Source: Dipteris shenzhenensis | Lineage: Eukaryota | Strand: one strand, 5' to 3' | DNA: 64,000 nt | Assembly: GCA_047967505.1 (NCBI GenBank) | Contig: CM106538.1 | Shown here: piece by piece, positions 30,374 to 62,487 of the stretch | Numbering within the stretch: the first letter of the stretch is position 1 | Layout of the letters: the number at the start of each line of letters is the position of its first letter | Position numbers and translations under genes: made by a program | The notes under the pieces: generated by a model | The model's input: the letters and a program-made list of their open reading frames with translations, nothing else | The model's database searches: none | What the model was told of the DNA's origin: nothing

Positions 30374-31353
30374 AAATCCACCCCCCCCAACAACACGAGA
30401 AAACTCTTCATAGAGGCCAGCCCAACTTGCTACCTCCAAATTGTTGGAGACGATGGAGAGGCCTCGTGCACAAATGTAGGACTCAAAATCCCCCCCCCAA
30501 ACAACAGGGAAAACTCTACTCAAAACCCTTAGCCCTTCGTCAATGTCTCCAGCAAATCCATAGAGCACAGAAGACTGTATTAGATAATTCGGGAAAAACC
30601 TAATTCCCAGAATGGCAGTTTTGGAAGAAATTGTAGCCTTTCTCCATGAAAAAATAGGAGGAATATGTGAAAATAGACTAGATTGCCATTCATGAAGTAT
30701 GTAATATCTACTACATTCTCAAATAATAAATAGAATATCAGTGTCTCAACTACGTTATCATCAAGAAAATAATAAAATTCGAAATCCATTTGAGTGAGAT
30801 TCATCTCGTGAGCCATAGTGGTGTTCAAAAACACCGTCATAATAGCTCTCTAGAATTTCCATTGATATTGAAACTCGCTTTATTGTGAGCATTCTCATTT
30901 GAATGCAAGATATGTAGTTGATGTAAAATCAATGGGCAATGACAAGCATTTAATGTAAAATTAGGTGGCAATGACAATCATTTATCGTGCACTTTCAACG
31001 GTTAGACTGACTAGCATGATTGTAAAAGGATAACTTTACATGTCATGTTTATTACTCATTGCGAAGGAAAAAATACACTTTAGGATGAAAACATAACAAC
31101 TTGTTGATGCACCATTGAAAGCCTTGAAATAAATCATGATTACAAAGAAACTCTCAATGCCAGCTTTGCACAATCCATTAGAAAGAATGGCATGAGGGAC
31201 ACTCCGTCAAACTCCATTATGAATGTAGTTATGAACATGTTTGCATATTATTCACACACAACAATTATGCACCAATTTACACAGCTAGAAAGAAAGTAGT
31301 AATTTCCATAAGTAATGATTGCACAAAGAAATACAATGTTATTATTCAAAACT

Positions 31354-31897
31354 CATTGTAGCTCCTCTCCTACATGTATATCATTTATGGATTCAATACA
31401 AATATGACCATATTCTGCAATATCTATGTTCATCATGGGGTCATACCAAGGTGGAAAGCTAGGAGAAAATACATAACTAACATTTGGCTTTGCATACGGT
31501 ATTTCCATTGCTGTTAATAAACCCTACCACATTGCCATATTGAACATCACCAACAATATGCACCATATCCTTCATAGGGATAGTAGGGTCCTCTTGGATG
31601 GAGTAGTTCTTTAGCCTTGGATGAACTTGACATAATTCCTTCCAGTCTCTGTAGGAGTACTTGTCACCTCCATAATAGAGAATAGTGGTCCCTATCTTGA
31701 TGAAGTCATGCACAAACAAGCCCAAGCCAACTAATGGTTGACTCATGCACCTCGAAAGTCACATTTTTGATCCAGAACACTTTGTTGATAGGGATAGGTA
31801 GCTTTGGTGGTCTGAATGGATCTCGTTCTGGTATGTACCTACTCAAGCATGATTTGAACGCATATCTCTCTACATCAAAAAAGACAATTCCAATTAC
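31354..31897 (-). pseudogene. SET-domain protein remnant (frameshifted)
   Basis: Manual translation across frameshifts: TFEVHESTI/GLGLFVHDFIKIGTTILYYGG...GNVVGFINS.../PNVSYV...GHICIESINDIHVGEEL, matching SET motifs GxGLF, FINS(H) and DI..GEEL. Confidence 0.78.
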
Positions 31898-32097
31898 CTA
31901 CAACAACAGTTATATAGACTTGAGATAAAATGAAAAAACACTTTGACATCTGTACCTACATGGAAATTATGCATTCTGTAGTTGGTTTATGTAGGCCTTA
32001 GAAATGTGTTTCTTGATATAGAGACCTTTGTACCCTAGGTCTATAGCCAATTGAGAAACTTGCATAGCATTCATGCTAGAGAGTTGTGGAGCATTCC

Positions 32098-33110
32098 TTA
32101 AAAGTCTTCTTTGGGATGCATTGAGTTCAAGCACCTAGCTATCACCACCATGGGTTGACTAGGTTGTACACCCTTTGGTTCTGTATTTTCACCTATAGCC
32201 CTCTCTCTTAGTTGATCTGCAAGAGGAAGATTTCTTGTTTTATATTCCATTCTTGACCATGCATGACTTTCCTCCCTCCATTCATCAATTACTTTCTGGA
32301 CAAGGTTGAAATCCTTATGCCCCTCCATCACAGGTAATTGTCCATAGCAATCATGCTGCGCACATCTTTAGCCTCATTGAGTTGTAGTAAGTAAGGCATC
32401 AACTCTCCTCTAAGTAGAGTATTATCATCCTTGTCTTGTACATCAAACGTTGAATAAAATATGCAATTTGATAGAGGGCTAACGCAAGCCTTGTATGGGG
32501 AGTCATCAACAAGGATTGTCTTTCTTGCATCACATCCAAATGCCTTTGAGATTTTTGCTAAGGGTCTGAACATTGCCTCAACACCAACCTTGTCGGGCCT
32601 ATTTATCCTCGTCTTACTATAAGTGTAGCATCCTTGCTGAGACCATATAACAAATAAAGGGAGGCTCTCATTTGCATAATTTTGTAGTCCTACCATATCA
32701 AGTACGTTATGCTCCATTGTAGTTGACCAGATACGTACATTAAATCTTTATAGCAAGATTTTAAGGAATTCTATGCACCCAAGATGAACAACCATATAAA
32801 TATTTTTGTCATGCATAATAGATGGATGTATTGGCGACTTGAATAGGTAGTGACTCAATAGCAAGCCATTCAAGTCTAATATGATTGTTATTCTTGGCAT
32901 ATCCAAAGAAATTGTATGTGGATATAGATCCAAATTCTCCTTGAAGTTGCTAGCTTTTGACTCATCGAAATTGTTAGGTGCTACGTTTTCATACATGTTT
33001 GCAACAACAATAAGATTATCTAGTCTTATCCCCAATGTTGAGATAGTATGTTCATCCATGTTCTCTTCTAAAAGTATAGGATTAATGATATTCCTTGCAA
33101 TTGTCTCCAT
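32098..33110 (-). pseudogene. FCP1/SCP-like (NIF, HAD-family) phosphatase remnant
   Basis: IILDLNGLL...GCIEFLKILL*RFNVRIWST...IWSQQGC...KTILVDDSPYKA. One in-frame stop at 32748 joins ORFs 32748-33110 and 32328-32717. Confidence 0.8.
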
Positions 33111-33345
33111 TTTTGTGTTATGTTTTCTTCTATACCCCCTGTATCGATCGCATCATTAATAGTCCCCATTTTGGATGGTATGTTGTCCTCTACATTGATA
33201 GTCCCCATTTTGGGTGGTATGTTGTCTGCTACAATAGCACCTGATGCACTCCTTGATGATGCCATGCTTCACAACAGCCTCTTCTTCATACTCATCATCC
33301 TCATCCTCATCCTCATCCATTGGTGTTATTCTCCAACTATTCGCA

Positions 33346-36300
33346 TGAGGTTGTGGACAATGGCACCAGTGCCATTCATTACATGGATTGAAGAGAATTG
33401 CACTTAGAGTGCCATTCCCCATTCTCCATGTGATGAATGTCAATAGTTCCATTCTACCCACCATAATTTGATTATTTGGAGAATGGCACCAGTGCTAAAC
33501 TTCACAACTTCTTATGATCTTTTGGAGAATGGTACTAGAGTCATCCTCCATGTAGACTTTTCACAAGATGTCAATAGCACTAATGCTAATGTTCATGTGA
33601 GTTTGTAGAGAGTGGCATTGATGCCATTATTCAGATACCAAGGTTGTCACGTGAGATTTTTCTCATAAAAAAATTGGAGGAACCTTAATAAATGATGATT
33701 AGAGATTGGTAAATGTTCCATTCCCCACAACATATAATGGTTGGACAATGGCACCAGTGCCATTCTCCACAACATCATATGATTATTTGAAGAATGTTAC
33801 AAGTGTTATTCTCTATTCTCCATGTGATGAATGACACTGGTGCCATTATCAACAACACCATATGATTATTTAGATAATGGCACCAGTGACATTCATCACA
33901 TGGATTTTTGAGGATGGCACCAATTCCATCCTCCATCCTCCATGTGATGAATGGCACCAATGTCATTCTCTAAGTAACCACATGATGTTTTGGAGAACGG
34001 CACCAGTGCCATTATCCTCAAATTCATTTGAGCACTAATGCCAATCTCAATGGGAGTTTGTAGCCATACTCCATGAGAGTATGTGAAGAATCCTACATGA
34101 GAGTTTGTGGATAGTGGAATTGGTGCCATCCTCCATGATGTTGGTTCCATTGTCCACAACAATTCTATTCTCCACAACACATGATGGTTGGAGAATGGCA
34201 CCAGTGCCATTCTCCACAATATCATATGATTATTTGGAGAATGTCACAGTGCTATTCTCTGCTCTCCATGTATTGAATGGCACTAATGTCATTCTCAACC
34301 ACATCATATGATTATTTGGTGAATTGCACTAGTACCATTTCCCACAACACCATCAGACTTTTTGGAGAATGGCACCACTTACATTCATCACATGGATTGT
34401 GGAGGATGGTACCAATGCCATTCTCCATTCTCCATGTGATGAATGGCACTGATGCCATTGTCAAGTAACCTCATGATGTTTTGGAAAATGGCACCAATGC
34501 CAATATCCTCAAATTCATCTGTGAAATAATGCCGATCTAAATGGGAGTTTGTGGAGAATGGCACCCATGCCATACTCCATGAGAGCTCGTGGAGATTGGC
34601 AGTGGTGTCATCCTACATGACCTTGTGGATAATGACACTAGTGCCATTCATCCCATGGATTGCCAAGAATGGAACAAGTTCCATTCTCTAGATATCAAAG
34701 TTATCCTACCAGTGGAACACAAAACATGATATCAGGGTTATCACATTAGAGTCTTCACAAATAATATGTATAGGAACCTAACACATGATGACTATAGAAT
34801 GGTACTAATGCCATTGGTGACAACACTTTATGATTATTTGGAAAATGGCACCAGTGACATTCATCACATGGATTGTGGAGGATGGAACCAATGCCATTCT
34901 CCATTCTCCATGTGATGAATGGAACTCGTGCCATTCCCCAAATATTCATATAGTGTTGTGAACAATGGCACCAGTGTCATTCTCTAAAACTACATCTAAT
35001 CTTTTGGTGATAATGGTCCACTCATGATGGTAGGATCATAGTTCTAGTGTCATTTTCCAAAAAATCATTTGATGTTGTGTAGAATGCCCATTATCATGCT
35101 AGTGGAACATAACACATGATGGCTAGAGAATGGCACTGGTGCCATTGTCCAAAAAATCATATGATATTATGGAGAATGGCACCAGTGTCATTCATCACAT
35201 GGATTGTGGAGAATGGCATCAGTGACAATATTCATGCTCCATGTCATGAATGGCACTAACATCAATCTCCATTACATCATATGATTCTTTGAAGAATTGG
35301 CACTAGTTCCATTCTCCACAATTTCATCTGATGACCTTGAGAGAATGCCAGAACAACATATCTCCATGTGAGTTTGTGGAACCAGTGACAATTACCACAT
35401 GGATTGTGGAGGATGGCACCAATGCAATTCTCTATTCTCCATGTGATAAATGGCACTGATGCCATTCTCCAAGTAACCACATGCCAGTTTTGGAGAATGG
35501 TACCAGTGGCATTCTCCTAAAATTCATCTAAGAACTAATGCCAATCTCAATGGGAGTTTGTGAAGAATGGCACCAGTGCCATTCCATGAGAGTATGTGGA
35601 GAATCATGCATGAGCATTTGTGGATAGTGGAATTGGTTCCATCCTACATGATGTTGGTTCCATTCTCCACAACACGTGATGGTTGGAGAATGGCAGTGGT
35701 GCCATTCTCCACAACATCATATGATTATGTTGAGAATGTCACTAGTTCTATTCTCTATTCTCTATGTGTTCTATGTGTTGAATGGCAATGATGCCATTCT
35801 CAACCACATCATATGATTATTTGGTGAATGGCACTGGTACCATTGTCCACAACACCATCTGATTATTTGGAGAATGGCACTAGTAACATTCATGACATGC
35901 ATTGTGGAGGATGGAACCGATTCTATTCTCCATTATCCATGTGATGAATGGCACTGGTGTCATTCCCCAAATATTCATATAGTGTTGTGGACAATGGCAC
36001 CAGTACCATTCTCTAAAACTACATCTGATGGTAGGATAATAGTACTAGTTTCATTTTCCAAATAATCATCTGATGTTGTGTAGAATGTTCATGATCCTAC
36101 TAGTGGAACATAACACATGATGTGAGGTTATCACATTAGAGTCTTCCCAAATAATATGTATAGGAACCTAATACATGACAAGTATAAAATGGTATTGGTG
36201 CCATTGTCCACAACACCATCTTATTATTTGGAGAATGGCACCAGTGCCATTTATCACATGGATTGTGGAGGATGGAACATGCCATTCTCCATTCTCCATT

Positions 36301-38614
36301 TGATTAATGGTAGTGGTGCCATTCCCCAAGTAACCACATGATGTTTTGGAGAATGGCATTAGTGCCATTCTCCTCAAATTCATCTGACCATAATGCCAAT
36401 CTCAATCGGAGTTTGTGAATAATGACAATGGTTCCATACTCCACGGGAATATGTGGAGAATCCTGCATGAGAGTTTGTAGATAGTGAAATTGGTGCCATC
36501 CTCCATGATGTTGTCAACAATGGTACTAGGCTCATTCAACTATGGATTTAAGAGGATGGCACCAGTGTCATTCTCCAGGTGCCAACGTTGACACATGAGA
36601 GTTTTATCATAGGAAATTTGAGAGGAACCTAACACATGATGGTTGGAAAATGGTAGTAGTTCCATTCTCCACAACAGAGCTATTCTCCACAACACATGAT
36701 CATTCGAGAATGGCACCGGTGCCATTCTCCAAAACATCATATGACTATTTGGAGAATGTTACCACTGCTATTCTCTGTTCTCCCTGTGATGATGCCATTC
36801 TCAATCACATCATATGATTATTTGGCCAATGGCACTGGTACCATTGCCCACAACACCATTTGATTATTTGGAGAATGATATTAGTGACTGTCATCACATG
36901 AATTGTGGAGGATGGCACCAATGCCATTCTCCATTCTCCATGTGATGAATGGTACCAGTGTCATTCTCAAAGTAAACACATGATGTTTTGGAGAATGGCA
37001 CCAGTGCCATTCTCCTCATATTCATGAGGACTAAATCCAATCTAGATGGGAGTTTGTGGAGAATGGCACCGGTTGCCATACTCCATTAGAGCAAGTGGAG
37101 ATTAGCAGTGGTGCCATACTACATAACCTTGTGGAGAATGACGCCAGTGCCATTCATCACATGGATTGTCAAGAATGGCACAAGTTCCATTTCCAGATGT
37201 CAAACATAACAAATGATGGTTGGAGAATGGCAATGGTGCCATTGTCTAAAAACTCATATGATATTATGGAGAATGACACAGATTCCATTCTCCATAGCAC
37301 ATGATGGTTGGAGAATGGCACCAGTGCCATTCTTCACAACATCATATGTTCGGGGGGGTCACTATGTATAAACCCTCTATATCACGTGCATTCAAGGCCT
37401 ATATTTAAAGTCCCTTATCTGTAAAAAATTTCATTAATAAAATGTACCCCTTTCCTATACAAATCTGTAAATTTTTTCCAAAACTATTTTAAATAGTCTC
37501 TTATGTATATTTATTTCTATAAATTTTAGAAATTAAAAAAATCCTTCTGTTGAACTCACGTGATAGGGTTACATATGATGAGTGACCCCCCCGAGATCAT
37601 ATGATTATTCCGAGAATGTCACGAGAGCTATTCTCTATTCTTTATGTGATGAATGGCACTAATGTCATTCTCAACATCATATGATTATTTGGTCAATTGC
37701 TCTAGTACCATTGCCCATAAAACCATTTGATTTTTTGAAGAATGGCACCAGTGACATTCATCACATGGACTGTGGAGGATGGCACCAATGCCATTCTCCA
37801 TTCTCCATATGATGAATGGCACTGATGCCATTCTCCTCAAATCCATCTAAGGACTTATGCCAATCTCAATGGGAGTTTGTGGAGAATGGCACCGGTGCCA
37901 TACACTATGAGAGCTTATGGAGATAGCCAGTGGTGCCATCCTACATGACTTTGTGGAGAATGACACTAGTGCTATTCATCACATGGATTGCCGAGAATAG
38001 CACAAGTTCCATTCTCCAGATGTCAAAGTTATTCTACCAGTGGAACACAAAACATGATCTTAGGGTTATCACATTAGAGTCCTCCCAACTACTATGTATA
38101 AGAACCTAACACATGATGACTATAGAATTGGTACTAGTGCCATTGTCCATAACTCTTTGTGATTATTTGGAGAATGGAACTAGTACCATTCATCACATGG
38201 ATTGTGGAGGATGGAACCAATGCCATTCTCCATTCTCCATGTGATCAATGGTACTGGTGCCATGTCCAAATATTCATATAGTGTTGTGGGGACAATGGCA
38301 CCAGTGCCATTCTCTAAAACTAAATTTGATCTTTTGGTGATAATGGTTCTAACTCATGATGGTAGGATAATGTTACTCGTGTCATTATAATCATCTGATA
38401 TTGTGTAGAATGTCCATTATCATGCCAGTGGAACATAACAAATGATGATTGGAGAATGGCACTGGTGCCATTGTCCAAAAAATCCAAGTGATGAATGACA
38501 TTGGATTGAGAAGAATGGCACACATGGATTGAGGAGAATGCCGCATATGGATTGAGGAGAATGACACCAATGCCATTCTCCATTGTCCATGTGATGAATG
38601 TCATTGGATTGAGG
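33346..38614. repeat. Degenerate array of the palindrome GAGAATGGCAC-CA-GTGCCATTCTC (block A)
   Basis: Dozens of full and half copies embedded in longer recurring units. Confidence 0.92.
37349..37595 (+). mobile_element. MITE copy 1 (247 bp)
   Basis: TIR ttcgggggggtcact / agtgacccccccgag; 8-bp TSD ATCATATG at 37341-37348 and 37596-37603; AT-rich core. Confidence 0.92.
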
Positions 38615-38951
38615 CACTACTACACACGGATCCTATTGCGATGTTTATGTACCGATGTTTAGCGCCCGCTTAGCGTTAATCGTCGGTATGAAAAGCGGGT
38701 TTCCTAAATCGTCGCTATATAGCGACTGTTGCTAAAAGTCGCTATATAGCGACACTGATACAAAATATTATAGCGACGTTTTTACAGAGAGGTTTTTTTT
38801 TAAATATAGGCCTTAAAAGTTAGTTTTTTCCAATGACAAATTTTTTTAAATTTTCATACATGTTTGAGCTCATAGAGAATAAAAAAATGAGAGCATGTAC
38901 ATCAAGCCTTTGAAGCTCATATATTCATGTCCAAGTTTGAGATGAGAAAAA

Positions 38952-41900
38952 TCAAATAAGAGCATTTACATCAACTGTTTCATCTTGAGCCAAGTCTAAG
39001 GCGCCAAGCAAGTCTATCTCCAACTCTATACCGAGTTGATCTCCTATATCATCATCGTACTCTAGCATCGTACATTCACCTAAAAGTATTTGATCATCTT
39101 CTTCAATAAAGCTTAAGTGTGGTGATTGATCTTGATGATTGTTGTCTTCTTTGTCAATATCGTGATCTCCATCCTCCTCCCGTGCAATGTCATTATGCGC
39201 ATCTTCCTCTTGGCTCATATGGTGATCTACATCTTCTTCGCTAGATTCATCAATTGGATCCGGCATTGGTAGTGGCATCTCCATATCCACATCTCGATCT
39301 TCAAAAATTTGCTTACTTCGTGGTGCAACTTGGATCATGTACCACCATCTTGGATCAAAACGATCCGGATGAAAAACCACCTATATTGAAGATGGGTGCC
39401 AAATGTCGTCAATTATATATATGAAATTATGCTCAAGTACATGTATCAATGGACTTTAAAAACGAAAGCTTCGACTAATTAAATCATTAGTATGCACCTG
39501 CTCATAGTGCTCGGGAAGAACAAAAGTATCACTTTCATCGGTCCAATGTTTGGTGGAGTCTATTGCAAAGAGACCGCTACTATCTTTTCTCACTGTTGCA
39601 TGGGGACCCTTGTAAGTAGTTCTAAACCATTTTACATCAAGAATGAAAATAATAAATCGTCTGAAATCAATTTCATAGATGTCGCGTATGTTCCACAATA
39701 ATCCAACTGTGAGGAGAGAAGATTGGTATCTGAAGCACTTGCTCGGCTATCTTGTGTGAAGTTAGCCATGACTCCACAATCATACGTGACTCTCTTTGAA
39801 TCGATGCGTTCCACGAGAAAATGTCGTCCATATGACCATAATGCACTGTACTTTTTGTACTGTAAAAGAGCATCATTAAAACAATGAAGATACATCTATT
39901 TTATAGCATATATTGCCACAAATAATTACTTAATTACGTCAAGAGGTAAGAAACTTACATGCACCATACATCCAGATGATAACTCTCGCTCGCACTTGTT
40001 TATTGTCTCTCCATCATGTTCGGCTTTACGTAGAGCTAGTTGTAGCCAATCAAGTGACATGTGAGTAGGGAGAAGAGCCAGATCTTGTGGATATGGTTGT
40101 GATCGCCTGTACATTACTCTGAATCTCGTCCTTGCATTTATTCTTTCTGCTTTGGCCACTTCATATCTCTCAATCCACTTCTGCATCTCAGGGCTATTGA
40201 GGATACAAAACTTATTGAATTTCTCCATTTGCTCTTCGCTCATCTTTCTTTCAATCCCTTTTCCTTGGGGAATCTCGCCAACAATGCGATCATCATCCTT
40301 GTTGTGCCAAGCTTGCGGCATATCAGGATCCGTGGATGCAAGAAACTCTGTGATATATACTAATGACTCTTGCACAAGCCATCCCTCTGCCATGCTTGCT
40401 TTCGGTCTTGCTCTTTGTCTTACAAACCCCTTTAAAGTTTTCATAAACCGCTCGAGAAAAAACATCCATCGACTATGAACGGTACCTACTATAGCCACCT
40501 CATCAACTATGTGCACAAGCAAGTGGACTTGAGTTGTCATAATGCTCGAGGGAAAGTGCTTCTCAAGCAAGCATACGGCTTCGATGGATTCCACCCTAGC
40601 CTTCTCGATGCTTGATATAGAGATCTCTTTTTGAGATATCCACCTATTTCACATGTCCATGCATATGTAAGATATTTGAGATATCCACCTATTTCACATG
40701 TCCATGAAGAAAATACATAATGCGATTTGATAGTAAGCATACCTCACAATACCACAGATCTTGAATATAGCATTTCTAACATCTTCTTGTAAGCACTCTT
40801 TTATTGTAATTGGGAGGATGAACTATCAAAGCAACAATGAAGTCATGTCAACAATATAACATAATAATAATTGCGCTAACGCATCACGATTATCGGTACA
40901 CTAATTCTACTTAGAATACCTGTAAGACCTTGTGCTAATCATGGGACTTGAGGCCACTAAGCTTATTGTCCTTTGAAAATTCTCCTTTCAAGCAATGCAT
41001 GTACCCTGTTGGTGTTTGAAAAGAGGCAATGTCTGCCTTGACCGCTGCCTCCTCCCTCGTAAAGAGGATCCATGTTGCTTTTGGGAGGACAACTTTTCCC
41101 GAAGCATGCACTTGGGGCCACAAATGAGACATCCTATTCATAGCATGCAAGTCTTCTCGCACTCCTCTCGAGTCCTTGGAACCAACCAAGTGTGCCCAAA
41201 TAGTAGCCCCCACATTCTTGAAGATATGCATGGGATCCAAGAGATGATTGATTTGTAACTGACCCCAATAAGGAAGCTCGTGAAAGATCGATAGCCTCTT
41301 CATACCAGGAGGAGGTTCCTCTCCATTCGCCCTCCAAGCTTGAATCCAATCACTTGCCTTCAAATATGATGGTGGTGGATCAAGCTGACCTCCATGTGCG
41401 AGATGGTCGAGCGGAAGGTATCGAGCATGACCTTCATAAACATTTTTTCTCATATGTTTGGAGTAGCGTGCAAGCAATTTCAGAGCCGGTCCACAAACAG
41501 GACAAGCATGGTACCCACTTGTAACAAGTCCTGCACGCGTGCATGAATGTGTTAGTACAAGAAAGCATGCAAAAGAGAGTAAAAAAAGCATAATCCCTCA
41601 TTGTACATGTAAAGACACAACCACGTACCTGCGCACTCTCCATATCCTGGGTAGTCATGCATGGTCCACATCAAGATACCCCTGACCAAAATATCATTGG
41701 TATGTCTAGGAGCTCTGGAAATATCAAAGACCTGCACTCCTCTCCATAATATCTGTAACTCCTCTATCAAAGGTGCCATGTACACGTCCATGTTTTTTGC
41801 CTTGTACTTTCCTAGCACAAGTAGTGCAAGCATGAGGTGTCCCTTTTTTATTGTTAGCCATGGTGGGATATTGTAATTCACCACAACTATGGGCCATGTC

Positions 41901-43011
41901 GACCAAGATGTCGAGCGTAACCCGAAAGGATTCACGCCGTCCATGGCTAGCCCAAGATGTAAGTTGCGTGGCTCCCTCGCAAAGTCCGGCCATTGATTAT
42001 CTATGTGCTTCCAAGCTGCACAATCTGCGGGAATCCTCAATGTGTGATCAGTGGACCGATGAGATGCATGCCATGTCATCAACTCTGCTATGGATTTGCA
42101 TCAAAACATGTGTTGTATTCTTGCAATGATGGGAAAGTGTCTTAAGACCTTTACCGATACTTCAAGTCATCTCTATATCGTTGTTCCCCACACTTTGGAT
42201 AACTAGCCAAATCTCCATGCTCACGATGAAAGAGAATACAATCATTACGGCAAGCATGGATGGTATCATAATCCATACCCACCGTTGTTAGCATCTTTTT
42301 CGCTTCATCTCTTGATGCGGGCATGGTATTTGGTGCAGGCAACATCTTCTGGAGCAACCTATGACAAAGACACTGTCCAAATGATGATTCTCAAAACAAA
42401 CAATATCCAAATAATGAGTCAAATTAATGCAAGGGCTAACCTTATTAAGGCCGAGACACTTGTATCCGACCACCCATACTGTACTTGTAGATTCAAGATT
42501 GAGAGACAAGCATGTAGTTTAGACATCCTAGCACCCTCGTACAATTGTGTTGATTGCAACTCTCGCATTTTGACCTCAGACTCTGACATCACGTGTACGT
42601 GGGATGTAGTGCTCCTAAAAATGGAATCCATCATGTCGACCATACCCTCATCGTCATCCGGGAGACTATAGTCTTGCTGAAAGTGAGAAGGTATATGTGT
42701 ACCCTCGTCACCCTCCTCATCCTGTTTTAAGATTTCGTGTAAATAGAAGATCTTCTATTTCCTGGTATACAATAAGATTGCGAACTTAAATAGCTTTGAC
42801 TTACCGATGATCCATCAACATGTGCAACACCAACAGGGGGTACTGGTTCCGGCTCCTCCCCATACATCCGCAAGTGGTGCATGATAATACGATGTTGATG
42901 TCGTACTTCTCGCTTGCAATGAGTGCAATGATAGTATAACCTCTCCATAAGCCACTTCGTGCTCCCGGGCGTTGGCGCATCATTGAACGAGCTTCCACTC
43001 GTCCCTTCCAT
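38952..43011 (-). pseudogene. CACTA TnpD-type transposase (Transposase_21, DUF4218, DUF4216-like), multi-exon, disrupted
   Basis: IHACRNDCILF, LAMDGVNPF, WTMHDYPGYG, LDPMHIFKN, LSGLKSHD*, HLLVHIVDE..GTVHSRWMFFLERFMKTLK, FVLPEH. GT-AG introns, stops and frameshifts. Confidence 0.93.
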
Positions 43012-48744: not shown

Positions 48745-48900
48745 AGGAGAATGACACCAGTGCCATTCTCCATTCTCCATGTGATGAATGGCATTGGATT
48801 GAGGAGAATGACACACGTGGATTGAGGAGAATGGCACCATTGCCAATCTCCATTCTCCATTTGATGAATGGCATTGGTGCCATTCTCCAAATATTCAAAT

Positions 48901-48949
<49 letters not shown>

Positions 48950-49482: not shown

Positions 49483-49527
<45 letters not shown>

Positions 49528-51458: not shown

Positions 51459-51496
<38 letters not shown>

Positions 51497-52424
51497 GGTC
51501 AAAACCTTATCCATATAGTGATAACCTATGAAGAGTTTTATGGCCAAATCTTTTGGTTATGGTGGAAATCAATTGCATGAGGCTAGAGGATTAAGCCATG
51601 GTGGCAAATGGTCAAAAATATAATGCCATATGGTCCAAATATTATGGCTCTAAGGTCTAAAAAGGTTTTAAAATCTTAGGACATAATGTCTAAACATCAG
51701 GCTAGATGGTCAAAACTTTAGCCATATATTGATTAATCTCATGGATTACACACAATGGTTCAGGTCCCATTCCCTAGATGTCAATGTTATCGCAGATGAT
51801 GGTTAGAGAATGGCACCAATGCCATTGTCCACCACACCATATGAGTAAAATATTGATATTGGCACCTATGCCATCAATCACAAGGATTGAGGAGTGTGGC
51901 ACCAGTGCCATTCTCCATTCTCTATGTATGAATGGCACTAGCGCCATTCTTCAAATATTCATATGATGTGGAGAATGGCACCAGTGCCATTCTCCAAAGT
52001 TCAACTCATATAGAATTCAAATTATTCCATGCATGTCAAATTGTCACAGATGATGGTTAGAGAATGGCACTGGTACCATTGTCCATCTCTCTCTCTCTCT
52101 CTTGGTCAAAACCTTATCCATATGGTGATAACCTACGAAGAGTTTTATGGCCAAATCTTTTACATATGGTGGAAATCATTTGCATGAGGTCAAAGGATTG
52201 AGCCATGGTGGCAAATGGTCCAAACTATAATGGCATATGGTCGAATTGTTATGGCCCTAAGGTCTAAAAAGGTCTAAAAATCTTAGGTCATAAGGTCTAA
52301 AAATCAAGCTAGATGGTCAATTGAGGAGAAATTCTCCATGTGATGAATGGCATTGGTGCCATTCTTCAAATATTCATATGATCTTGTGGAGAATGGCACC
52401 AGTGCCATTCTCCAAACTTCAACT
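48745..52424. repeat. Palindrome array block B, with a 487-bp triplication and four (CT)n-ttggtcaaaacc units
   Basis: Same core palindrome as block A. Equivalent ORFs end at 50143, 50630 and 51117, giving a period of 487. Confidence 0.92.
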
Positions 52425-52590
52425 TGCCTTGTGAAAAAAATTCAAAATTAGGCAGGAAATTTGAATTTAGAATTCAAAACTTTCTCAAATTTAAAAATTT
52501 AAGTTCAAAAAATTATAATGTTAAAATGGAACATTTCAAATTTGAATTTGAATTTGCATTTGCAATACAATTTCAATTTGAAGTTGAGAG

Positions 52591-52593
<3 letters not shown>

Positions 52594-52659
<66 letters not shown>

Positions 52660-52703
52660 GCTCTCTCTAGGTGTGAGAGAGAGCGTGAGCGACGTGAGAG
52701 TTG

Positions 52704-52762
<59 letters not shown>
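52594..52762. repeat. (CT)n and (GA)n microsatellites in inverted arrangement
   Basis: Directly visible. Confidence 0.9.
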
Positions 52763-52766
<4 letters not shown>

Positions 52767-52855
52767 TTGTAGCAAAGAGTAGCTTTAGGAGAGAAGGGAG
52801 CGTAGGAGGGAGAGGAGAGCATCGTAGGAGAGGAGAGCGTAGGAGGAGGAATTTG

Positions 52856-53403
52856 ATGAAACCAAGTTGTAGGATGAGAGTCAAGAAAGCAAAATCCCAA
52901 GATGCCAAACCTACGTATCGATTCACCTCTTGCCAGGTGGATCGTTATCGCCTTCCTTCGGTTTCTAAACTTCTTGTGGATTGCACGGACGAAACCAATA
53001 GCTTCTCAAATCTCGTGAAGATTTGACATGACAAGCAGCACATATCGATTCCGGACTGTGGATGCAGATTTTCGAGAGGAGGATGATGATGATGAATTTC
53101 GGGAGCAGGCTAGACAGAGGTGCGAGAGGCAACGAAGGTAGCTTGGGGATTACGGAGCCCGAGGGCAGAGATGTGATGCAACCTCAATGCTCTCGAAATT
53201 TAGGATGTTGAATTTTGAGAGCAGAATGACGATGCCGTGAGCTTGGATGATGAATTCGAGAGCCAATTTTAATTCATTGAAGGGAAGCATGGATGACGAA
53301 ATTGAGATGTTGCTAGAAGTTGTGAGGGGAGGCCCCGGGCTGCGTCATCGTCGTATTAGAAAGAGAGGCCGTGCGGATTTTGACCTTGGAGGGAGAGGAG
53401 GAG
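52856..53403 (+). pseudogene. Putative decayed first coding exon of the giant element's rightward gene
   Basis: CpG-rich, acidic/basic coding-like sequence starting MKPSCRMRVKK and ending at a strong donor GAG|GTAAGG (53404). Its link to the exons at ~59.8 kb is inferred. Confidence 0.35.
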
Positions 53404-54459
53404 GTAAGGTCTTTTGATTTTTTTAGGGTTCTTTTTTTTTATCATTGCCTTTTTTTTTTGGCTTTCTTTTTGTTTTCATAAAACATTGCCTAAGCTAATA
53501 GTGGGCCTAGGCTTGGGATTTGAGCAATCATAGTGGCCACTAAAGGAAAATTCAAAATATAATTCTTCAAGCTATGTTGAAGAGTAATACTTGGACCCTC
53601 ATCTTGAAAAATCTTTGACTTTGCCTCTTAAGAGGTGGATTACAGTAATCATCCAAATTGATTACCACTTCTTTACGCTTTCTCATCTAGTCATCGAGAA
53701 CATTTGGACACCTCCTAGAAACTACTCCTCTCTTGGTAATACTCTTCTAGTTGTCTTTTTAGGAATTTTTCCGGCTTGTTGTTGCTCGTCTAAATGTTGA
53801 TCCTCCTAGGTATTGGATCTCTACCTCCACCAACTTAATGGAACGGACTACTCAGAGCTCTCCAAGGCAAAAACTATCCTTTTAATTGTGGAAAAGTACC
53901 TATGGATAGATGCCAGTACAAAATATTCAAGCTTCCTTGCCTTAATTGCATGTAGCCTAGAACAAAATTTTGCTATGATGGCTACGTGCACCTTAATAGG
54001 CCACTGAACCCACTATACTCTTGTTCAACTTCACCCACTGGTGGTATTCACCATCTTGGCCTGATAAGATTCATGCACTCCATGAGTAACTAATTCAGCA
54101 TTCAATGAGTTCCTCAATTGAGAATGCTTCTTACAGACCCCTTGTACTTAAAATCCCCTCATGCACAAAGCATAGGTGCTAGTGAGTGGAGTGGATAGGA
54201 GGATCCCCTCTAATGGAATTCGTTCTCTTGTGGTTGGTACAACCTTGCTATCTATAAAACCTAAGTGGGAGAGCCTCTAATGGACTTCCTTCTCTTGTGC
54301 TTGGTACAACCTTGCTATCTCTAAAATCTAGCTGAAGTCAATCTTAGGGTATTCAAACTTAACAAAGTGTCAAGGTTCGACTCAACAAAGTATCAAGGTT
54401 TGACTGAACAAAGGATCAAGGTTTAACCATTGTAGCCATCCATTGACTTCCCCCTTGTG

Positions 54460-54860
54460 ACCAAGGGGTTTGTATTGATGGAAGTTTTCAACTATAGTGA
54501 GACACTTGCTCCCATAGCTCAAATGAAGGCAATACCAATGATAATTGCAATGGTATCTTATTCAAAGTGGTACATCTTCTAGATGGACATGAATTGAGAA
54601 TTTTTAAATGGAGATATCAAGGACATTTATATGAGAGAAGCCACCTAGATTTTGAATGTAGGGTGACCAAACGGGGAAAGTGTGCATAGTCTCAGAAACA
54701 TTGTATGACTTGAAATAGGCCCCTTGAGCATCATACCAATGGATCTATGACTCCTTTGGAAGAATCATCTTGATATAGAGTGCATAAGATGTAAACATGA
54801 ATCTTCATTCAAAGGGGCCCAAGAAATAAATGATGATTTTATACATTGATGATTTGATCA
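54460..54860 (+). mobile_element. Highly degenerate Copia RT fragment
   Basis: Manual translation ETLAPIAQM..I..IIAM...MDM..EFLNGDI.DIYM...KVC....LYDLK*AP. Confidence 0.65.
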
Positions 54861-55127
54861 TAAAACAACCCACTAAAGGGATATTAGGTTCTTGACCATG
54901 ATTACACTAGCTCACCATGTCAATGATATTGATATCCATGTCACGGTAAAACCTAACCGTTCCAAAATTCTTGATCAAAACCCTCATCCTCATTCTCACA
55001 ATGTATATCTCATAGAAATTAGAGTATCCAAACTATGCAATTAATGAAATATCACATGCAATGTAAAAATCTGATTATGTAGAAGATTAAAGAGAAACTT
55101 ACATTAAAGGAGGGGTGGCCCTCTCTC

Positions 55128-55203
<76 letters not shown>

Positions 55204-56855
55204 TCTTACCAACAAATAATACCTACACACAAACAAATGCAAGGTCATGATGATGGTGGAAATAATTCATGCTTTAGAAAAAAGTTCTATCAAAATACCA
55301 AAATTTTTAGGGACTCATTCATAGATTCTGGAGATTGGCACTAGTGCCATTCTCCAAAAACCCACGAGGGGATTGGCATCACTACCATTTCTCTATGTGG
55401 GTTTGGGGAGAATGGCACAGGTGCCAATTTCCATAAACCCACATGGAGATCAGCACTAGTGCAATTGTACATAGGAAAGCTAGACTCATATGGAGAATGG
55501 CACTGGTGCCATTCTCCACAATCCTACATGGAGAATGGCAATGGTACCATTCTCCCCCACTTCACGGACATCTTTGTTGATCTTATGAAATTTTGCACAA
55601 TCCCACATGTCTCCCCCACTTCAGGGACATCTTTGTTGATCTTATGAAATTCTGCACAATCCCACATGGAGAATGGTACTGGTGCCATTCTCCATAGGAA
55701 AGCCAGACTCACATGGAGAATGGCACCAGTGCCATTCTCCACAATCCCACGTGGAGAATGGCACTGGTTCCATTCCCCATAGGAAAGCAAAACTCACATG
55801 GAGAATGGCACCAGTGCCATTCTCCACAATCCCACATGGAGAACGGCACTCGTTCCATTCTCCATAGGAAAGCCAGACTCACATGTAGAATGGCACTGGT
55901 GCCATTCTCTGCAATCCCACATGGAGAATGGGACTGGTGCCAGACTCACTTGGAGAATGGCACCAATGCCATTCTCCACAACCCCACATGGAGAATGGCA
56001 GTGGTGCCATTCTCCCCTGCCACAATGACATCTTTGTTCGTCTTATGAAATTCTTTGGTTGTAGTTTGTTCATAATTAACATCCTATAATTGTAATGAGA
56101 GGGGTTGGCTATCAGATGCGGTGACAAGGTCATGAGATCGTGGAAATCATTCACGCTTTAAAAAAAGTTTTATCAAATTACCAAAATTTTAGGGACTCAT
56201 TCATGGATCTTGGAGATTGGCACCAATGCCATTCTCTAGAACCTACTAGGGGAATGGCATCAGTGCCATTTCTCTATGTGGGTTTGGGGAGAATGGCATT
56301 GGTGCCATTCTCCATAAACCCACATGGAGATCCCCACTAGTGCCAATGTACATAGGAAAGCCATACTCATATGGAGAATGGCACCAGTGCCATTCTCCAC
56401 AATACCACATGGAGAATGGCAATGGTGCCATTGTCCCAAACTGCAAGGATGTCTTTGTTGGTCTTATGAAATTCTGCACAATCCCACATGGAGAATGGCA
56501 CTGGTGCCATTCTCCATAGGAAAGATAGACTCACATGGAAAATGGCACCAATGCCATCCTCCACAATCCCACATTGAGAATGGCAGTGGTGCCATTCTTC
56601 CCCAATACAAGGACATCTTTGTTGGTCTTATGAAATTCTTTCGCTGTGGCTTGTTCATAATTAATTTCTTTTAATCGCAATGAGAGGGGCAGATGCGGGG
56701 ACAAGGTCATGATGATGGTGGAAAGAAGTCATGCTTTAGAGAATAATTTTAGGGAAATAATTAATAGTTTCACAAAAAAATTGTATAGACTCATTCATGG
56801 ATTCTGGAGATTGGCACCAATGCCATTCTTCAATAACCCACTAGGGGATTAGCAT

Positions 56856-59496
56856 TGTTGGTAAATTGAAAGGAAAGCAAAGAGTGGACACAAACTCAGA
56901 ATACTTGCATTATAGAATGAAGAAGAGTGAGGTCCTTAAGTAGGCACCTCATACATGCTCACTGACATCACTGATGACTTCAGAGCTCCACAATCATCTC
57001 CTCAATCTGCTCCTAGATTCTCTCAATCATCCTATGTGGCTTTCCACCACCTAATTGTGCTTATGGGCACCTAACTGTGCCTCTAACACTCACACATAGA
57101 AACCAAGGTGTGCCTGAGGCATACACCTTGAGATATCCCAACATACCCCCCCTCAAGGGAATGCCTCAGGCTATGTCAAGGATACATCTAGTCTCATAGT
57201 TTCTCATGCCATCTCATGGTGGTCAAGGATAAATCTATGGCTAGGTTCTCATGCTAGCAAGGGTTCCCATGGGTGTAAGGTAAACAAAAGGGATACTAAA
57301 AGACCTTCCAATGGTTATCTCCCCTGCATGTACATGCACACAATGTCTGCAGGAGGTACCATGGAGCAAAAACACATACACATGGCCTACATCATATGGT
57401 GACAAGAGGTGTTTACAAAACACACAAAACACAATAGTTTATTTCATTCATTTTGGAGGACTATCTAGGCTGAGTACCTTGACATAAAAAGAGAGATCTG
57501 GACCATACATAGAGATGATTTAAAATGCATAATCTTCAAAGGATGCCTCATCTTGTGGAGGCCCTCATCAACTGAAAGTAGATTTGCATTTTCTGTCTTT
57601 GCTTTGGCTCTGCGAAATTTCTCATGATGGTTGTTCTTGCCACAGTGTTTGCATGGATTAATTTTGAAGCAGTCTTTTGAAAGGTGATTTGTCTTTTACA
57701 GTGATTGCAAGGGGTAAACTTGCCCTTCTGGACTTTTACAGCATAAACAGTGTCATTGCCTTTCTTGAGCTCCATATGCCTTTCTTCTTCTTGGAGAGCA
57801 GAGATAATACCTTCAAGATTAGGATTAGGAAGATTTTTCAAAGTGGTAACTATATGATCATAATCTTCAGGCATACTCTTAAGTAACACTGCCATAGCAT
57901 CATCTGGAGTAATAGGAGAGTTGATAGAAGCTAATTGAGTCATAAGACTCCACATGTAGTTGACATGAGCTACCAAAGTAGTGCCACTAACCATCTTCAA
58001 TTCAAAGAAAGAGATTTTAAGTGATAATTTAGAGATGTGACAGCTAGCACCAAAAATCATGTCAAGCTTCTACCAAGCTTCTGAAGGAGACTCTAAGTCA
58101 GAGATGTGGTGAATATAATCATCTCCTAAAGCAAGAGCAATGATACCATATGCTTTCTCCTCTCTAGCGGGATCCCTTGTCGGGCATGTCGGAGTTGAGG
58201 ATTCTCCAGCATTGGAGGCTGTAGAAGAAGCGGTTGGAGTCGGTTTGACAAGTCCCCAGAGGTTCTCCCTCATCAATGCAAATTTCACCTTCATCTGCCA
58301 TGTGTGGAAGCCCTTTCCATTGAACTTCTCTAGATTCAATAGGGTAGCCATGAGAAGGTCTAACCCAGATATTGGGCAGTGTCTTTCTCTCTTACAAGGC
58401 AAAAAATAACTGAAAGGCTTCCAAAATATAAGCACTTGATGTAGCAAAAACTAGTGACCAATATTCAATCAATGATGCTTTTTCTTACATATTTCATAGA
58501 GGTGGCTTAAAATGAGAACTTTCCAATCAAAACCAGGTATAGCAATTCAAAGCACAACTGAAGCTACACTGTACTGATGTTATTGAAAGTTTCAAAAAAA
58601 CAGAAATGCTAGAATAGCATCTTATGTAGCATCATCTTCAAAAAGCTTGTCAAAACTATCAAAACCAAAAGGCTGAAATTGGAGGGCTTGTAGCTTACTC
58701 TTCAGAGCAAAGGAAAAGGGGGTTTTTGAGGCAAAAGAGAGTTGATATACCACAGAAGGTCCTCTGGGAAGAAGAGGTGCAAAAACGCATCAGAACTCCA
58801 TAGCTTGCCCCTTCAAAGTCGACTGGTTTTTCATTGATTTCTCCTTGAATATGCAGCCATTACTACTCAGATTTCAGCACAAGATAGCCCAAGGCATGGA
58901 AAATCTACCCCTGAAAGGAATTAGAGGAAGATGAAGTATGCTGAGAGAAAACGCAGAAGCAAAAGTCGACGATCTTCGTGTAATGGTGACAAAACGAGGG
59001 CGTCTTTCTTCAATTCCTTTCAACCAGGGGTTCGCCCCTTTGAGGTAGATCTCCAGCAGGAAGGGCATGGGAAATGGTTGAGAACCGGAGGAGAACAAGC
59101 TTAAGCAAACTTTGGGAAGAAGAGGAAGAGATGGTGAAGAAGAAGATGAAGAAGAAGATGATGAAGTGGCAGAAATGGGCTCAAGGGGGATCAAAGGGCT
59201 CTGATACCATGTTGGTAAATTGAAAGGAAAGCAAAGAGTGGACACAAACTCAGAATACTTGCATTATAGAATGAAGAAGAGTGAGGTCCTTAAGTAGGCA
59301 CCTCATACATGCTCACTGACATCACTGATGACTTCAGAGCTCCACAATCATCTCCTCAATCTGCTCCTAGATTCTCTCAATCATCCTATGTGGCTTTCCA
59401 CCACCTAACTGTGCTTATGGGCACCTAACTATGCCTCTAGCACTCACACATAGAAACCAAGGTGTGCCTGAGGCATACACCTTGAGATATCCCACA
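56856..59496 (-). mobile_element. Non-autonomous gag-only Copia-type LTR element (TR-GAG-like), 2641 bp
   Basis: LTRs at 56856-57143 and 59210-59496, nearly identical; TSD AGCAT; Met PBS at 59198-59209; PPT complement tacccccc at 57144. Only gag lies inside. Confidence 0.95.
57548..58351 (-). pseudogene. Copia-type gag (UBN2-like plus zinc knuckles) with a premature stop and frameshift
   Basis: MATLLNLEKFNGKGFHTWQMKVK...AYGIIALAL...EAW*KLD...LLKSMPEDYDHIVTTL...CNHCK. Confidence 0.88.
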
Positions 59497-59814
59497 AGCA
59501 TTAGTGCCATTTCTCTATGTGGGTTTGGGAGGAATGGCACTGGTGCCATTCTCCATAAACCCACATGGAGATTGGCACTAGTGCCAATGTCCATAGGAAA
59601 GCCAGACTCACATGGAAAACGGCACCGGTGCCATTCTCCACAATCCCACATTGAGAATGGCACTACTGCCATTCTTCCCCACTACAAGGACATCTTTGTT
59701 GTTCTTATGAAATTCTTTGGTTGTGGCTTGTTCATAATTTATTTACCTATAATCGTAATGACATGGGATGGCTATCAAATGCGGGGACAAGGTCATGATG
59801 ATGGTGGGGAATAA

Positions 59815-60449
59815 AGTGGTTGGAATTGGTGTAGTGTGTGCAATAGATCCGGAGGGTCGAGGCCTACTGTAGAGGTGTGAAGATTGGGGCAGAAAATGTA
59901 TCGGTGATAATGGAGAAGTCTATCAATAGTAACATGCTCTTGCCATTTCCCACTATGGATGCAGTGCTTATTAGTGAGGCACTTTGGAGTGTTGTTAAGT
60001 GGTCTAAGGGCTCTCTAAAACATGTTGGTGATTCTTTAGATGATCCTATGACTCAAGAAGGCAGACAAAGTGAGCCTGAGCCACCTTATGTTGAGGCATT
60101 GCAAGTTTCTTCATTGAAAATGAAAATTTCATTTGTGAATCTTGGAAAGAAAAAGATTGTCTTGTGGGATGAGAGCAAAACAAAGACCATGGGGGAAGGT
60201 GTGATCTTGTATGTTTTCCCAGGTGACTCTATAAACTTTGACCTATTGGGTAACGATTGCATTGGTGTGGGTATTGAAAAGAAAGAAAAAATTACAAGAA
60301 GTGGGTCTTCTATGCAAGATGCTAGCTCTCTCAACCTAGTTAAGTGTCCCATCAAGCAGATTACCTTACTTGATGGAAGCCCATTGCAACAATATGTGCC
60401 CATGGACCAGTTGCTGGCATGGATGAGGTGGTCAATGATCGAATGTTGA
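59815..60449 (+). pseudogene. Two tandem Tnp1/En/Spm-like (TnpA C-terminal-like) domains
   Basis: IGAENVSVIMEKS...LLPFPTMDAVLISEALWSVVKW and KIVLWD...GEGVI...PGD...LGNDCIGVGI resemble the V..G....P...LG...V.V...LP.P....A....V.W pattern. Judged by eye. Confidence 0.45.
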
Positions 60450-60639
60450 AAAGGGGTGATCCATCTTCAAAGAAAAGAAGGTACACTTTCATTAATAAGG
60501 TGCCTAAACAAAGAGACCCGAAGTGTGTCATGGATGCCATGACAACTTCCATTGCAAGGGCTACATACACATGTACGAATTTGTTGCTGTCAAATACAAG
60601 AGAAAACCCACCCTCTTCAGAGGGAAGTGTTGTTGTTGA

Positions 60640-61830
60640 GCCACCATACCAAAAGTTGCCAGAGAACTTGCTACTCCAACTAGATAATTGTGGGTCTGAG
60701 AACAAAAATGTTTGCATACCTTTCTCTTCTTGTAGCAAGGGGCATTTTCAAGATAGTTCAATTGGTCTTCTTGATGGCAAGACACACCCATGAGGACATT
60801 GATGCAATGTTCAGTAGGCTCTATGAGACCTTCCAAGTGGGGACAAACATTCACTTTCCCTCATTTGATAGATACATTCAAAAAATGTACATCATCTTCA
60901 CCAACCCCATTTCTTCTTACATGGGTTCCTAACTTCAAGGATTATGTGGATTGCTACCTATGTGATGGGAAAGAAATGCTAGTTGGTCATGCAAAGCCAT
61001 TACAATTTCGATTTTGCATGCAAGGTGACAGACCTATGATGTAGTACAAGGTGCATCCAAAATCACCGAATCGGATGCCCACCACTGAAGGGGGAATTGA
61101 GCTGTGGAAGAAAGATAGTGAGGGTCGACCATTGTTGCCAACAAGTTGTCCAGATATACTGCCAATGGCTGCATTTGTGAGAAATCACTTGCAATTAATA
61201 TCTAGCATAAAGGATTACAGTAAGTTTTGGGAGAGATTTGCAAGTGGAAATAATGCATCGTATGAGTCCTACATTAGGCCAGTGATAGACTACTAGAAAA
61301 CCATGATTGTTGAGCTCGAACAAGAAAACATCTCAGAGATAGGAGTGTACAGAGACTTTTGGCCAAGAACACAATCGCCTCATGAGGAGGATGATATAGA
61401 TGCTTGCATTAATGAGTTCCAAGGCTATGAGGAATGGAATGATCACTATTGCAGGCCGCTACAAGGTAAACCAAGGGAAGAGTTTAGACCAATGGTGGAT
61501 GTTAAGCAAGGCGACTTCATCTTGGTGAGGCCATCACACCCTATATACCCCATATGACTTGGGGTTGCCGTATCAAGTGCCAAGATGTCCTAACTTTAAG
61601 AAATTATTAATTCAGTATTGGACACCATCAATTAAGAGAAAGGGGCTCACTAATGCAGATGCCTATTTTGACTACTAGAACAAGTATTGGGCATAGAATA
61701 GGTTGGATCCATAGGTATGGGAGTGTATTGATGCATTGGTCTAGTCATGGACATTAAAAGCCATAAATAGACCCAAGAAGATTAAGATTCCATGGAGTGT
61801 ATGTATCAAAGCATAGGAGAGTTTGCTTGG
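60640..61830 (+). pseudogene. DUF7869-type (Sola-like) DDD transposase, C-terminal portion, frameshifted
   Basis: LPENLLLQLDNCGSENKN / MFAYLSLLVARGIFKIVQLVFLMARHTHEDIDAMFSRL matches the QLDN..ENKN...GHTHEDID motif. Downstream ORF fragments continue it; no N-terminal catalytic segment is seen. Confidence 0.75.
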
Positions 61831-62487
61831 TATCAGAGCATAGAAAATGGTGATGATTTTCTCCCTCTTGATCTCCCAAACTTCCATTGTAATATGTGTT
61901 CTCATGTGATGTTTCTCAATTGTTGTTATCTTATCAAGGGATATTTGCATATTATTAATATGACAATTTTTAGAAGTTGTCTTTCACCACCAACAACTTT
62001 GTTTCTAGTGGTTCACTTTGCACGGTGTTTGTTAACACCACCAACTGGTGTTTATTAACACCTCAAATAAAATATACATGTTGTCCGCAAACAGTGTTTA
62101 TTAACACCACCAAATACATGATTTTCAAACTCTACCACAAATGCATGCTTTGTTTTGGTTATTATACCCAATGAAACTTTTCACAACCAATGAAGTTTTT
62201 CATAATCATTGAAATTTCCAAATATCAGCATATTCAATATTGGAAAAAATCCCACAATCAATGATTTTCCCAAATTTAATGAAACCTTTCCCAAATTTAA
62301 TGAAATCCACCCAATTTCAAAATTCCCAAAATGCAACTTTTGTCCCACTTTATCTAATACGGTGTTACAGCCATAAAAAGGCCAGTTGTGTGCATGCCAT
62401 TCAATGTGGTGACATGGAGATGTGGGGGAAGTCGATGGAGATTACGAAGAAATTCCACAAGAGCAGGCATTTCAAGGTAAAAAAATG

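Follow-up and report, generated by a model that had tools for sequence, protein, structure and literature searches.

The locus of Dipteris shenzhenensis described here, a stretch of 64,000 nucleotides from contig CM106538.1 of assembly GCA_047967505.1 that was analysed as a whole and is called the window below, raises the question of whether a transposase pseudogene, long palindromic arrays and two genes at their far side are parts of one mobile element. We consider it likely that they are, and that positions 30571-62366 represent one giant, decayed, non-autonomous and cargo-bearing DUF7869-family transposon with terminal inverted repeats (TIRs), in which the arrays have expanded and two genes make up an accessory arm. 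The element now measures 31,796 bp, of which about 18.8 kb are left after the subtraction of a nested CACTA element, a long terminal repeat (LTR) element and a miniature inverted-repeat transposable element (MITE), in agreement with the core of about 19 kb given in a preliminary description of the locus. The decay noted there is also evident, in the transposase with its deletion, frameshifts and stops, in the stop within the NIF-like gene and in the mismatches of the left TIR. The proposal of a single giant element stands insofar as the ends pair through their TIRs, a target-site duplication (TSD) and a common subterminal motif, the arrays are a family trait and the nested elements can be subtracted; it falters at the cargo, where the identity of the SET-like gene is weak and the pair of NIF-like and SET-like genes stands beside the transposase in none of 80 related loci.

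The two ends carry the argument. A 25-bp TIR had been proposed without any visible TSD. Direct reading of 30574-30598 against the reverse complement of 62339-62363 returns the same 20 of 25 identities, and when both ends are moved 3 bp outward, the inverted match extends to 22/28 (AAGACTGTATTAGATAATTCGGGAAAAA at 30571 versus AACACCGTATTAGATAAAGTGGGACAAA, the reverse complement ending at 62366) and a candidate 4-bp TSD becomes visible after all, with ACAG at 30567-30570 on the left flank and at 62367-62370 on the right. The left TIR (AAGACTGTATTAGATAA..., plus strand) occupies 30571-30598 and the right TIR (minus strand, reverse complement AACACCGTATTAGATAA...) 62339-62366. The TIR and TSD that characterise class II, subclass 1 transposons are both found here (22/28 and ACAG/ACAG), at a boundary chosen post hoc. 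An inverted pair of at least 22/28 arose in two of 500 shuffles of the two end regions of about 630 bp, and in none of the 500 together with a 4-bp duplication. AACACCGTATTAGATAA with up to three mismatches is found at two places in the window, both of them the termini, where 0.09 would be expected. No 3-bp TSD fits at these ends (flanks AAG/GTT and CAG/ACA).

Inside the termini lies a palindrome common to both ends. GGTGTTNNNNAACACC (GGTGTT-N4-AACACC) with at most one mismatch has four sites in the 64 kb, at 30820, 62024, 62047 and 62093, compared with 0.13 expected, and none of 100 shuffles reached four. The left site (GGTGTTCAAAAACACC) occupies 30820-30835 and the three right sites fall within 62024-62108; the outermost copies end 249 bp (left) and 258 bp (right) from the termini. 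The 18/20 inverted match reported for this motif was confirmed by eye, and the two further copies on the right were found as well. The first six bases of the right TIR, AACACC, are one half-site of the subterminal palindrome, and the decayed left terminus reads AAGACT at the same place.

The same architecture can be followed into related loci. Metagenome contigs were scanned with an alignment of ten relatives, which gave 587 candidates and 457 confirmed stretches; 80 loci were kept. The exact subterminal motif is present in five of them (L001, L004, L006, L008 and L012; six sites), with about 0.05 expected in 829 kb, and its position is always 35-470 bp 3' of the transposase gene. Locus L001, on a contig of 5.6 kb, contains an intact open reading frame (ORF) of 1067 aa; the 72% identity of its best segment refers to relative P0021, which heads query alignment A1, and does not refer to the window. 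GGTGTTTATAAACACC lies 30 bases past its stop codon, and about 200 bp beyond that the contig reads ...CCCTAATATGGAGTT, which aligns with the right terminus of the window. The pattern TATTAG-NN-AA-NNN-GGGA is common to the two ends in the window and to the right end of L001, with the subterminal motif about 250 bp away in each case. For these three ends the pattern is circular, since it was derived from their alignment; beyond them it does not occur in the window or in the 80 loci, which indicates that the left end of the window is a family-type end and not a chance inverted match.

The transposase named in the preliminary description is present at the right end as a DUF7869 pseudogene on the plus strand (59768-61828). 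Pfam DUF7869 (PF25273) scores 54.4 bits on 60684-60929 and 22.8 bits on 60374-60790, two overlapping ORF pieces judged against a cut-off of 26, and the blocks LQLDNC..NKN and GHTHEDID are both there. Full-length relatives of 988-1178 aa align by tblastn in two parts, 59768-60514 with residues ~1-255 and 60555-61828 with residues ~632-1050, and only about 40 bp lie between the two blocks. About 375 residues have therefore been deleted, including the invariant IIHDKMD block with the likely first catalytic Asp, and because of this loss, of several frame changes and of in-frame stops, the window copy cannot be autonomous. The DUF7869 domain is carried by all 27 relatives scanned with Pfam. A search of a representative library with an 82-aa piece of the transposase returned 131 matches, two of them at E≤1e-10, and a full-text literature search for 'DUF7869' found no paper.

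The core alignment of 13 relatives (L001 numbering) contains invariant D36 and D39 in IIHDKMD, D174 in LQLDN, and D214 and D216 in HTH-E/D-DID, the third acidic position following the second at a distance of about 40 residues. An AF2 model of the L001 core (pLDDT 61.5, pTM 0.67) has the strand and helix order b-b-(b)-a-b-a-b-a and places the invariant acidic residues where an RNase-H-like fold would have them. Foldseek with this model gave no match at E≤0.001, the best being a PIWI domain at 3.3e-3; the best VIA Z was 5.5, with Mos1 at 4.8 and Metnase at 4.4, all below the trust levels of these tools. The fold matches are mostly RNase-H-like (PIWI domains, integrases, Mos1, Metnase, Tn5 and IstA), at scores that are all under the trustworthy range. 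From the alignment and the model we infer that the DUF7869 transposase may be an RNase-H-like DDD/E enzyme built on the blocks IIHDKMD, LQLDN and HTHEDID.

A single palindromic family fills 33.4-59.7 kb, between the two ends. Array A (33360-38614) consists of a 28-bp palindrome, TGGAGAATGGCAC-NN-GTGCCATTCTCCA, and is interrupted by the MITE of about 240 bp at 37354-37592; array B occupies 48745-52416; array C runs over 55326-56855 and continues at 59497-59700, directly upstream of the transposase gene. As had been claimed, the family runs through the middle of the element: ATGGCACNNGTGCCAT with up to two mismatches has 135 sites, all of them in 33360-59672, compared with 0.36 expected. A profile built from 90 array units gave 396 nhmmer matches, and outside 33.3-59.7 kb its sole match at E<1 is at 62690-62705 (E 0.16-0.21, both strands), the next best having E 1.8. 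Degenerate array units that had been seen by eye in both flanks of the element were dropped, as the profile gave nothing significant there. In array B, 3.2 tandem copies of a 487-bp higher-order unit (49909-51461, 98% identity) show that the array was amplified locally and recently, although the element as a whole is old. Arrays B and C are separated by a 2.9-kb spacer (52417-55325) with (CT)n/(GA)n microsatellites, in which no family was found and whose tracts form a perfect 58-nt inverted repeat (52593-52650 / 52706-52763).

The nested elements named in the preliminary description are confirmed; each has ends of its own, and the two largest have a TSD. The CACTA element (38615-48744, minus strand; termini CACTAC.., 3-bp TSD AGG) carries GTCGCTATATAGCGAC subterminal repeats and TNP2 and DUF4218 domains, and the LTR element (56856-59496, minus strand) is of copia type with gag only, LTRs of about 288 bp at 98.9% identity and the 5-bp TSD AGCAT. 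Arrays flank the CACTA element on both sides, and array sequence is restored across the empty sites of both insertions. Since the insertions have their own TSDs and the array is continuous across the empty sites, the arrays are older than the CACTA and LTR elements inserted into them and do not belong to these. The CACTA element was considered as the owner of the arrays and rejected on the same observations, the arrays lying outside its termini and the unit being restored at its empty site; borders of the CACTA element at 37354 and 45241 were likewise rejected, this pair being two MITE copies of about 240 bp with GGGGGGTCACT termini. The CACTA element itself contains the second MITE copy (45006-45241) and a hairpin (46150-46591). 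A 340-bp fragment near the first letters of the window (443-782) is 89.5% identical to the TNP2 region 41052-41394 of the nested CACTA element, which indicates that this CACTA family has other copies nearby.

Arrays of this kind are not peculiar to the window. L001 has about ten TTTGGCCATATGGCCAAA-type palindromes at a spacing of about 140 bp upstream of its gene, and at least three same-arm perfect palindromes upstream of the gene, differing in sequence by lineage, were found in 5 of the 18 loci examined (L001, L003, L017, L018 and L024), a count from which the palindromes of L009 and L022 are excluded because they lie inside the gene. In the distant relatives, the arrays (L017 3-141, L024 1111-1335, L018 3797-4710 and L003 632-908) have periods from about 22 to about 150 bp and consist of unrelated palindromes. 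The array architecture is conserved among relatives and the sequence is not, and this recurrence indicates that upstream arrays are a family trait, here greatly expanded. By comparison with the subterminal repeats of En/Spm, they would most likely be protein-binding arrays, either regulatory or titrating the transposase.

At the opposite end of the element, a NIF/FCP1-like phosphatase-family gene occupies 31950-33065 on the minus strand, about 300 bp from the beginning of the arrays. Pfam NIF (PF03031) matches 32331-32747 of the same strand with 34.3 bits against a cut-off of 21.8; one in-frame stop lies at 32748-32750, and the frame changes before the C-terminal tail. Four relatives, 45-58% identical, carry PF03031, and the C-terminal tail is conserved. 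The catalytic motif of the NIF/FCP1 family is DxDx(T/V). Where DxDxT is expected, LDLNG(L/V)L stands in the window gene and in each of the four relatives, Asn having taken the place of the second Asp, and it would be unsafe to presume that the protein is an active phosphatase. A decayed and weakly supported SET-like ORF (31758-31480, minus strand), located some 190 bp downstream of this gene, continues past a frameshift, so that the feature as a whole spans 31350-31758; its likeness to SET is one of motifs, GLGLF..I..G..I..Y.G and, past the frameshift, ..GEEL. An Atlas search gave a lead in the same direction, with 28 of the 30 nearest clusters in the SET set and a top score of 0.94, on 149 shared features only. 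Both genes read toward the left end.

This left arm recurs elsewhere. Contigs 80-95% alike from two further public runs (X1 and X2, each with a share of 0.06) cover 30591-33394 and bridge both genes (e.g., X2 record 12, 31740-32113); these were the only two matching runs listed, and no RNA run was among them. Not covered are 28000-28560, 28935-29121, 29683-30056 and 30244-30430, and such gaps are not evidence. The contigs of X1 total 1.95 million letters, which suggests that what assembled there is probably repeated DNA. Within the window, a diverged relic at 11993-12914 (plus strand) repeats the order of NIF tail and then SET, with the C-terminal half of NIF, interrupted by stops and without an N-terminal half, followed 120 bp later by a SET-like ORF. 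No likeness at the DNA level was found between this relic and the gene pair of the element. Its SET-like piece (12651-12914) scores 20 bits against 22.4 (E 9.7e-4), and a solved-structure search with this paralogue returned EZH2 at E 1.3. A second element around the relic was sought and rejected, as 7.4-16.9 kb contains no arrays, ends or motif. We regard the NIF-like/SET-like pair as most likely an accessory module of this lineage and not trapped host DNA.

Several observations weigh against this reading of the interval, and the cargo accounts for many of them. Of the two outward-facing genes placed at the left end by the preliminary description, the FCP1/NIF-like gene is real, if decayed, and the SET gene is left without Pfam support: a scan of the 64 ORFs of 29.3-33.8 kb for SET (PF00856) and other Pfam families gave none at E≤0.05. 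The SET-like ORF had no word-sharing homologue in a near-length search, longer and shorter ranges not being searched, and no significant relative among solved structures. The relic at about 12 kb lies outside the element, so that the NIF/SET pair is not confined to the TIR-bounded stretch. In 78 of the 80 related loci, NIF and SET queries had no match next to the transposase, and the other two (L041 and L048) gave only weak NIF-like matches of 30-38% identity; this neighbour test is a weak one, because the close relatives are on short contigs.

Further points concern the ends and the enzyme. The left TIR is decayed, with 6 of 28 positions mismatched. The TSD emerged after the 3-bp shift of the ends, and a 4-bp match is expected once in 256 per placement. 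Among random position pairs in the whole window, 93 of 2,000,000 reach the level of the TIR match, far above the shuffles; we attribute this background to the repeat arrays and microsatellites, because the real end regions hold one such pair only. In run X2, the likeness to the left arm breaks off at 30591, which is 20 bp short of the proposed terminus, and unlike sequence follows, which may reflect a rearranged end or an assembly join; in that contig, sequence ending ...CCCAATTCG takes the place of the final ~20 bp and forms a partial palindrome with the bases that follow. Just outside the right end, a 42-bp piece (62664-62705) is identical to the reverse complement of array unit 59498-59539, which we read as filler copied during repair. 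The catalytic-core model is only moderate and its fold matches are below threshold. Finally, paired ends around such an internal order are known from the single copy in the window.

What else could have produced this locus? The interval might be a composite of two separate relics, the left end coming from one non-autonomous copy of the DUF7869 family and the right end with the transposase from another, with the NIF-like and SET-like genes, of host origin or older relics, caught between them and ACAG matching by chance. The placement of the 4-bp match was chosen post hoc, at one chance in 256 for each placement, the second NIF/SET relic at 11993-12914 lies outside any recognisable end, NIF and SET are next to the transposase in no related locus, and the region is a dense nest of transposable elements, all of which such a composite would accommodate. 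Nevertheless, we consider it unlikely, since no further end-like sequence or subterminal motif is found between the ends or elsewhere in the window, the arrays extend from close to the NIF gene as far as the transposase gene, interrupted only by insertions with their own TSDs, and the left arm, not its flank, recurs in the two other runs. It is less probable again that the arrays form a satellite of their own or come from some other element, and that the true DUF7869 relic is only the right part of about 3 kb (~59.5-62.4 kb), whose left end was lost. Related loci are mostly about 4-6 kb long, and bivalve Sola1 elements have a mean of 5.4 kb in the consulted part of one survey (PMC10294476), which speaks for a small element, as does the array unit of 42 bp beyond the right end. 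Against it, palindrome arrays lie upstream of the gene in 5 of the 18 relatives examined, including the closest, all 135 sites are between the paired ends, the CACTA element was inserted into the array and is not its source, and a family-type left end is present at 30571.

A direct repeat of 933 bp brackets the whole region (28242-29124 = 62704-63636, 94%), and in principle the interval could be the spacer of a local segmental duplication of a receptor-kinase 3' end, immobile and with TIR-like ends that are incidental. However, the TIRs are not at the edges of the repeat (29124 and 62704), the copies would have been only about 1.8 kb apart before the insertion, and the ends carry family-specific features common with L001, all of which makes this origin very improbable. 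A single DUF7869-family transposon thus remains the reading that we prefer.

The surroundings are themselves rich in repeats. The only apparently intact host gene noted in the window is an intronless ORF of 905 aa at 25860-28574 (plus strand), which encodes a G-type lectin S-receptor-like kinase (B_lectin, S_locus_glycop, PAN_2 and Pkinase domains); the element lies 2 kb downstream of it. The 3' end of this kinase gene and 550 bp downstream are duplicated at 94% identity 340 bp past the right terminus (62485-63636 versus 28242-29124). Ahead of the duplicate is a patchwork of two tandem copies, about 90 bp each, of 28614-28737 and the 42-bp exact inverted array unit, which looks like filler DNA from break repair. 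Two copia-type retrotransposons are located farther to the left, one at 2676-7418 (plus strand) with 734-bp direct repeats at 90% around integrase and reverse transcriptase, and one at 16877-22764 (minus strand), in which the gag-pol ORFs (17295-21192) are long and the terminal repeats of 174 bp are 97.7% identical. Immediately to the left of the element, 29125-29369 and 30129-30374 are LTR-like fragments related to the latter retrotransposon.

If the element is one transposon, its movement would have depended on an intact family member supplying the transposase in trans. A transposase dimer would recognise GGTGTT-N4-AACACC as well as the terminal half-site, and excision would be followed by reinsertion at a staggered cut of 4 bp. 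The NIF-like and SET-like products could have a role in the manipulation of chromatin or of the C-terminal domain (CTD) of RNA polymerase II, which is speculation at present. A broader form of this idea, to which we give limited credence and which we consider rather doubtful, is that a plant lineage of DUF7869 elements, possibly of Sola type, acquired a module of a SET-like and an FCP1/SCP-like protein, the latter possibly a pseudo-phosphatase, and kept it as a unit across diverged copies; the module would act on host chromatin or the RNA polymerase II CTD for expression or escape from silencing, and the arrays would be binding platforms for a protein encoded by the element.

The locus and its 80 relatives together give an anatomy of the DUF7869 family, with a terminal consensus, a conserved palindromic subterminal site whose half-site is the terminus, a 4-bp duplication and, ahead of the gene, arrays of palindromes that are specific to each lineage. 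Five or six superfamilies are commonly used to classify plant DNA transposons, and this anatomy provides annotation pipelines with concrete features to look for. Should the NIF-like/SET-like pair turn out to be carried regularly, the element would be a rare plant TIR transposon with whole chromatin-type accessory genes and not captured fragments, which would bear on how transposons counter host silencing.

One comparison is with L001, which has the same transposase family, the same GGTGTT-N4-AACACC site 3' of the gene, the same terminal pattern about 250 bp further on and a palindrome array upstream; it differs in its intact ORF and in its palindrome (TTTGGCCATATGGCCAAA, about ten copies), and no left end or extra genes are on its 5.6-kb contig. 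The closest relatives in general are on contigs of at most 5.6 kb, and identity is only about 30% for the long loci. Just 19 ORFs of at least 200 aa are present in the 35 long related loci. Among known large elements, the subterminal repeat arrays of En/Spm are bound by element proteins, and both enlarged En/Spm elements and Pack-MULEs resemble the window element as large TIR elements with extra ORFs or host fragments between their TIRs. The part of PMC6431247 that was available describes Pack-MULEs in plants and, for a red alga, En/Spm families that measure 16-20 kb and have 4-5 ORFs. The window element differs from them in its transposase family, in its termini, which are not CACTA, and in its TSD of 4 bp, not 3 or 9.

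The catalytic blocks allow a further comparison. The DN motif at the second catalytic Asp and the ~40 residues to the third acidic block are reminiscent of the layout in the IS630-Tc1-mariner group, to which Zator and the bacterial TP36 (ISAzo13-type) transposases belong; DUF7869 proteins are far longer than the transposases of Tc1/mariner. Zator has a TSD of 3 bp, for which there is no fit at the window ends, and TP36, from which it arose, is presumably Pfam PF07592. That family is annotated on 11% of the members of one DUF7869 Atlas cluster, a lead only, and was found on 0 of 27 DUF7869 proteins (7 scanned at E≤0.01, 20 at E≤0.1). The derivation of Zator from TP36 is given in an excerpt of PMC7386202.

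The element can also be compared with Sola. Bao et al. reportedly gave its TSD as 4 bp in 2009, the length of the candidate TSD here, and Sola is likewise a TIR element with a long transposase (1000-1180 aa in the relatives of the window copy). The DUF7869 Atlas clusters come from Streptophyta, molluscs, echinoderms and arthropods, and these are phyla for which Sola is reported, in bivalves by the available part of PMC10294476. In extracts from two plant surveys, Sola is listed among the DNA transposon superfamilies and said to be absent from the angiosperms analysed (PMC9804982), and it is counted among the rare recently active TIR families or clusters (PMC12973397). The element had been presented as a type not recognised as described in plants; with Sola among the listed superfamilies, this is too broad for the superfamily, and it may hold for the giant cargo-bearing form, since no giant or cargo-bearing Sola-type plant element appeared in our literature searches, in which SET/phosphatase cargo by name was barely covered. 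Compared with the curated Sola1 elements of bivalves, which average 5.4 kb (5445 bp) in that part of PMC10294476, the window copy is about six times as long and carries two extra genes and 135 palindromic sites.

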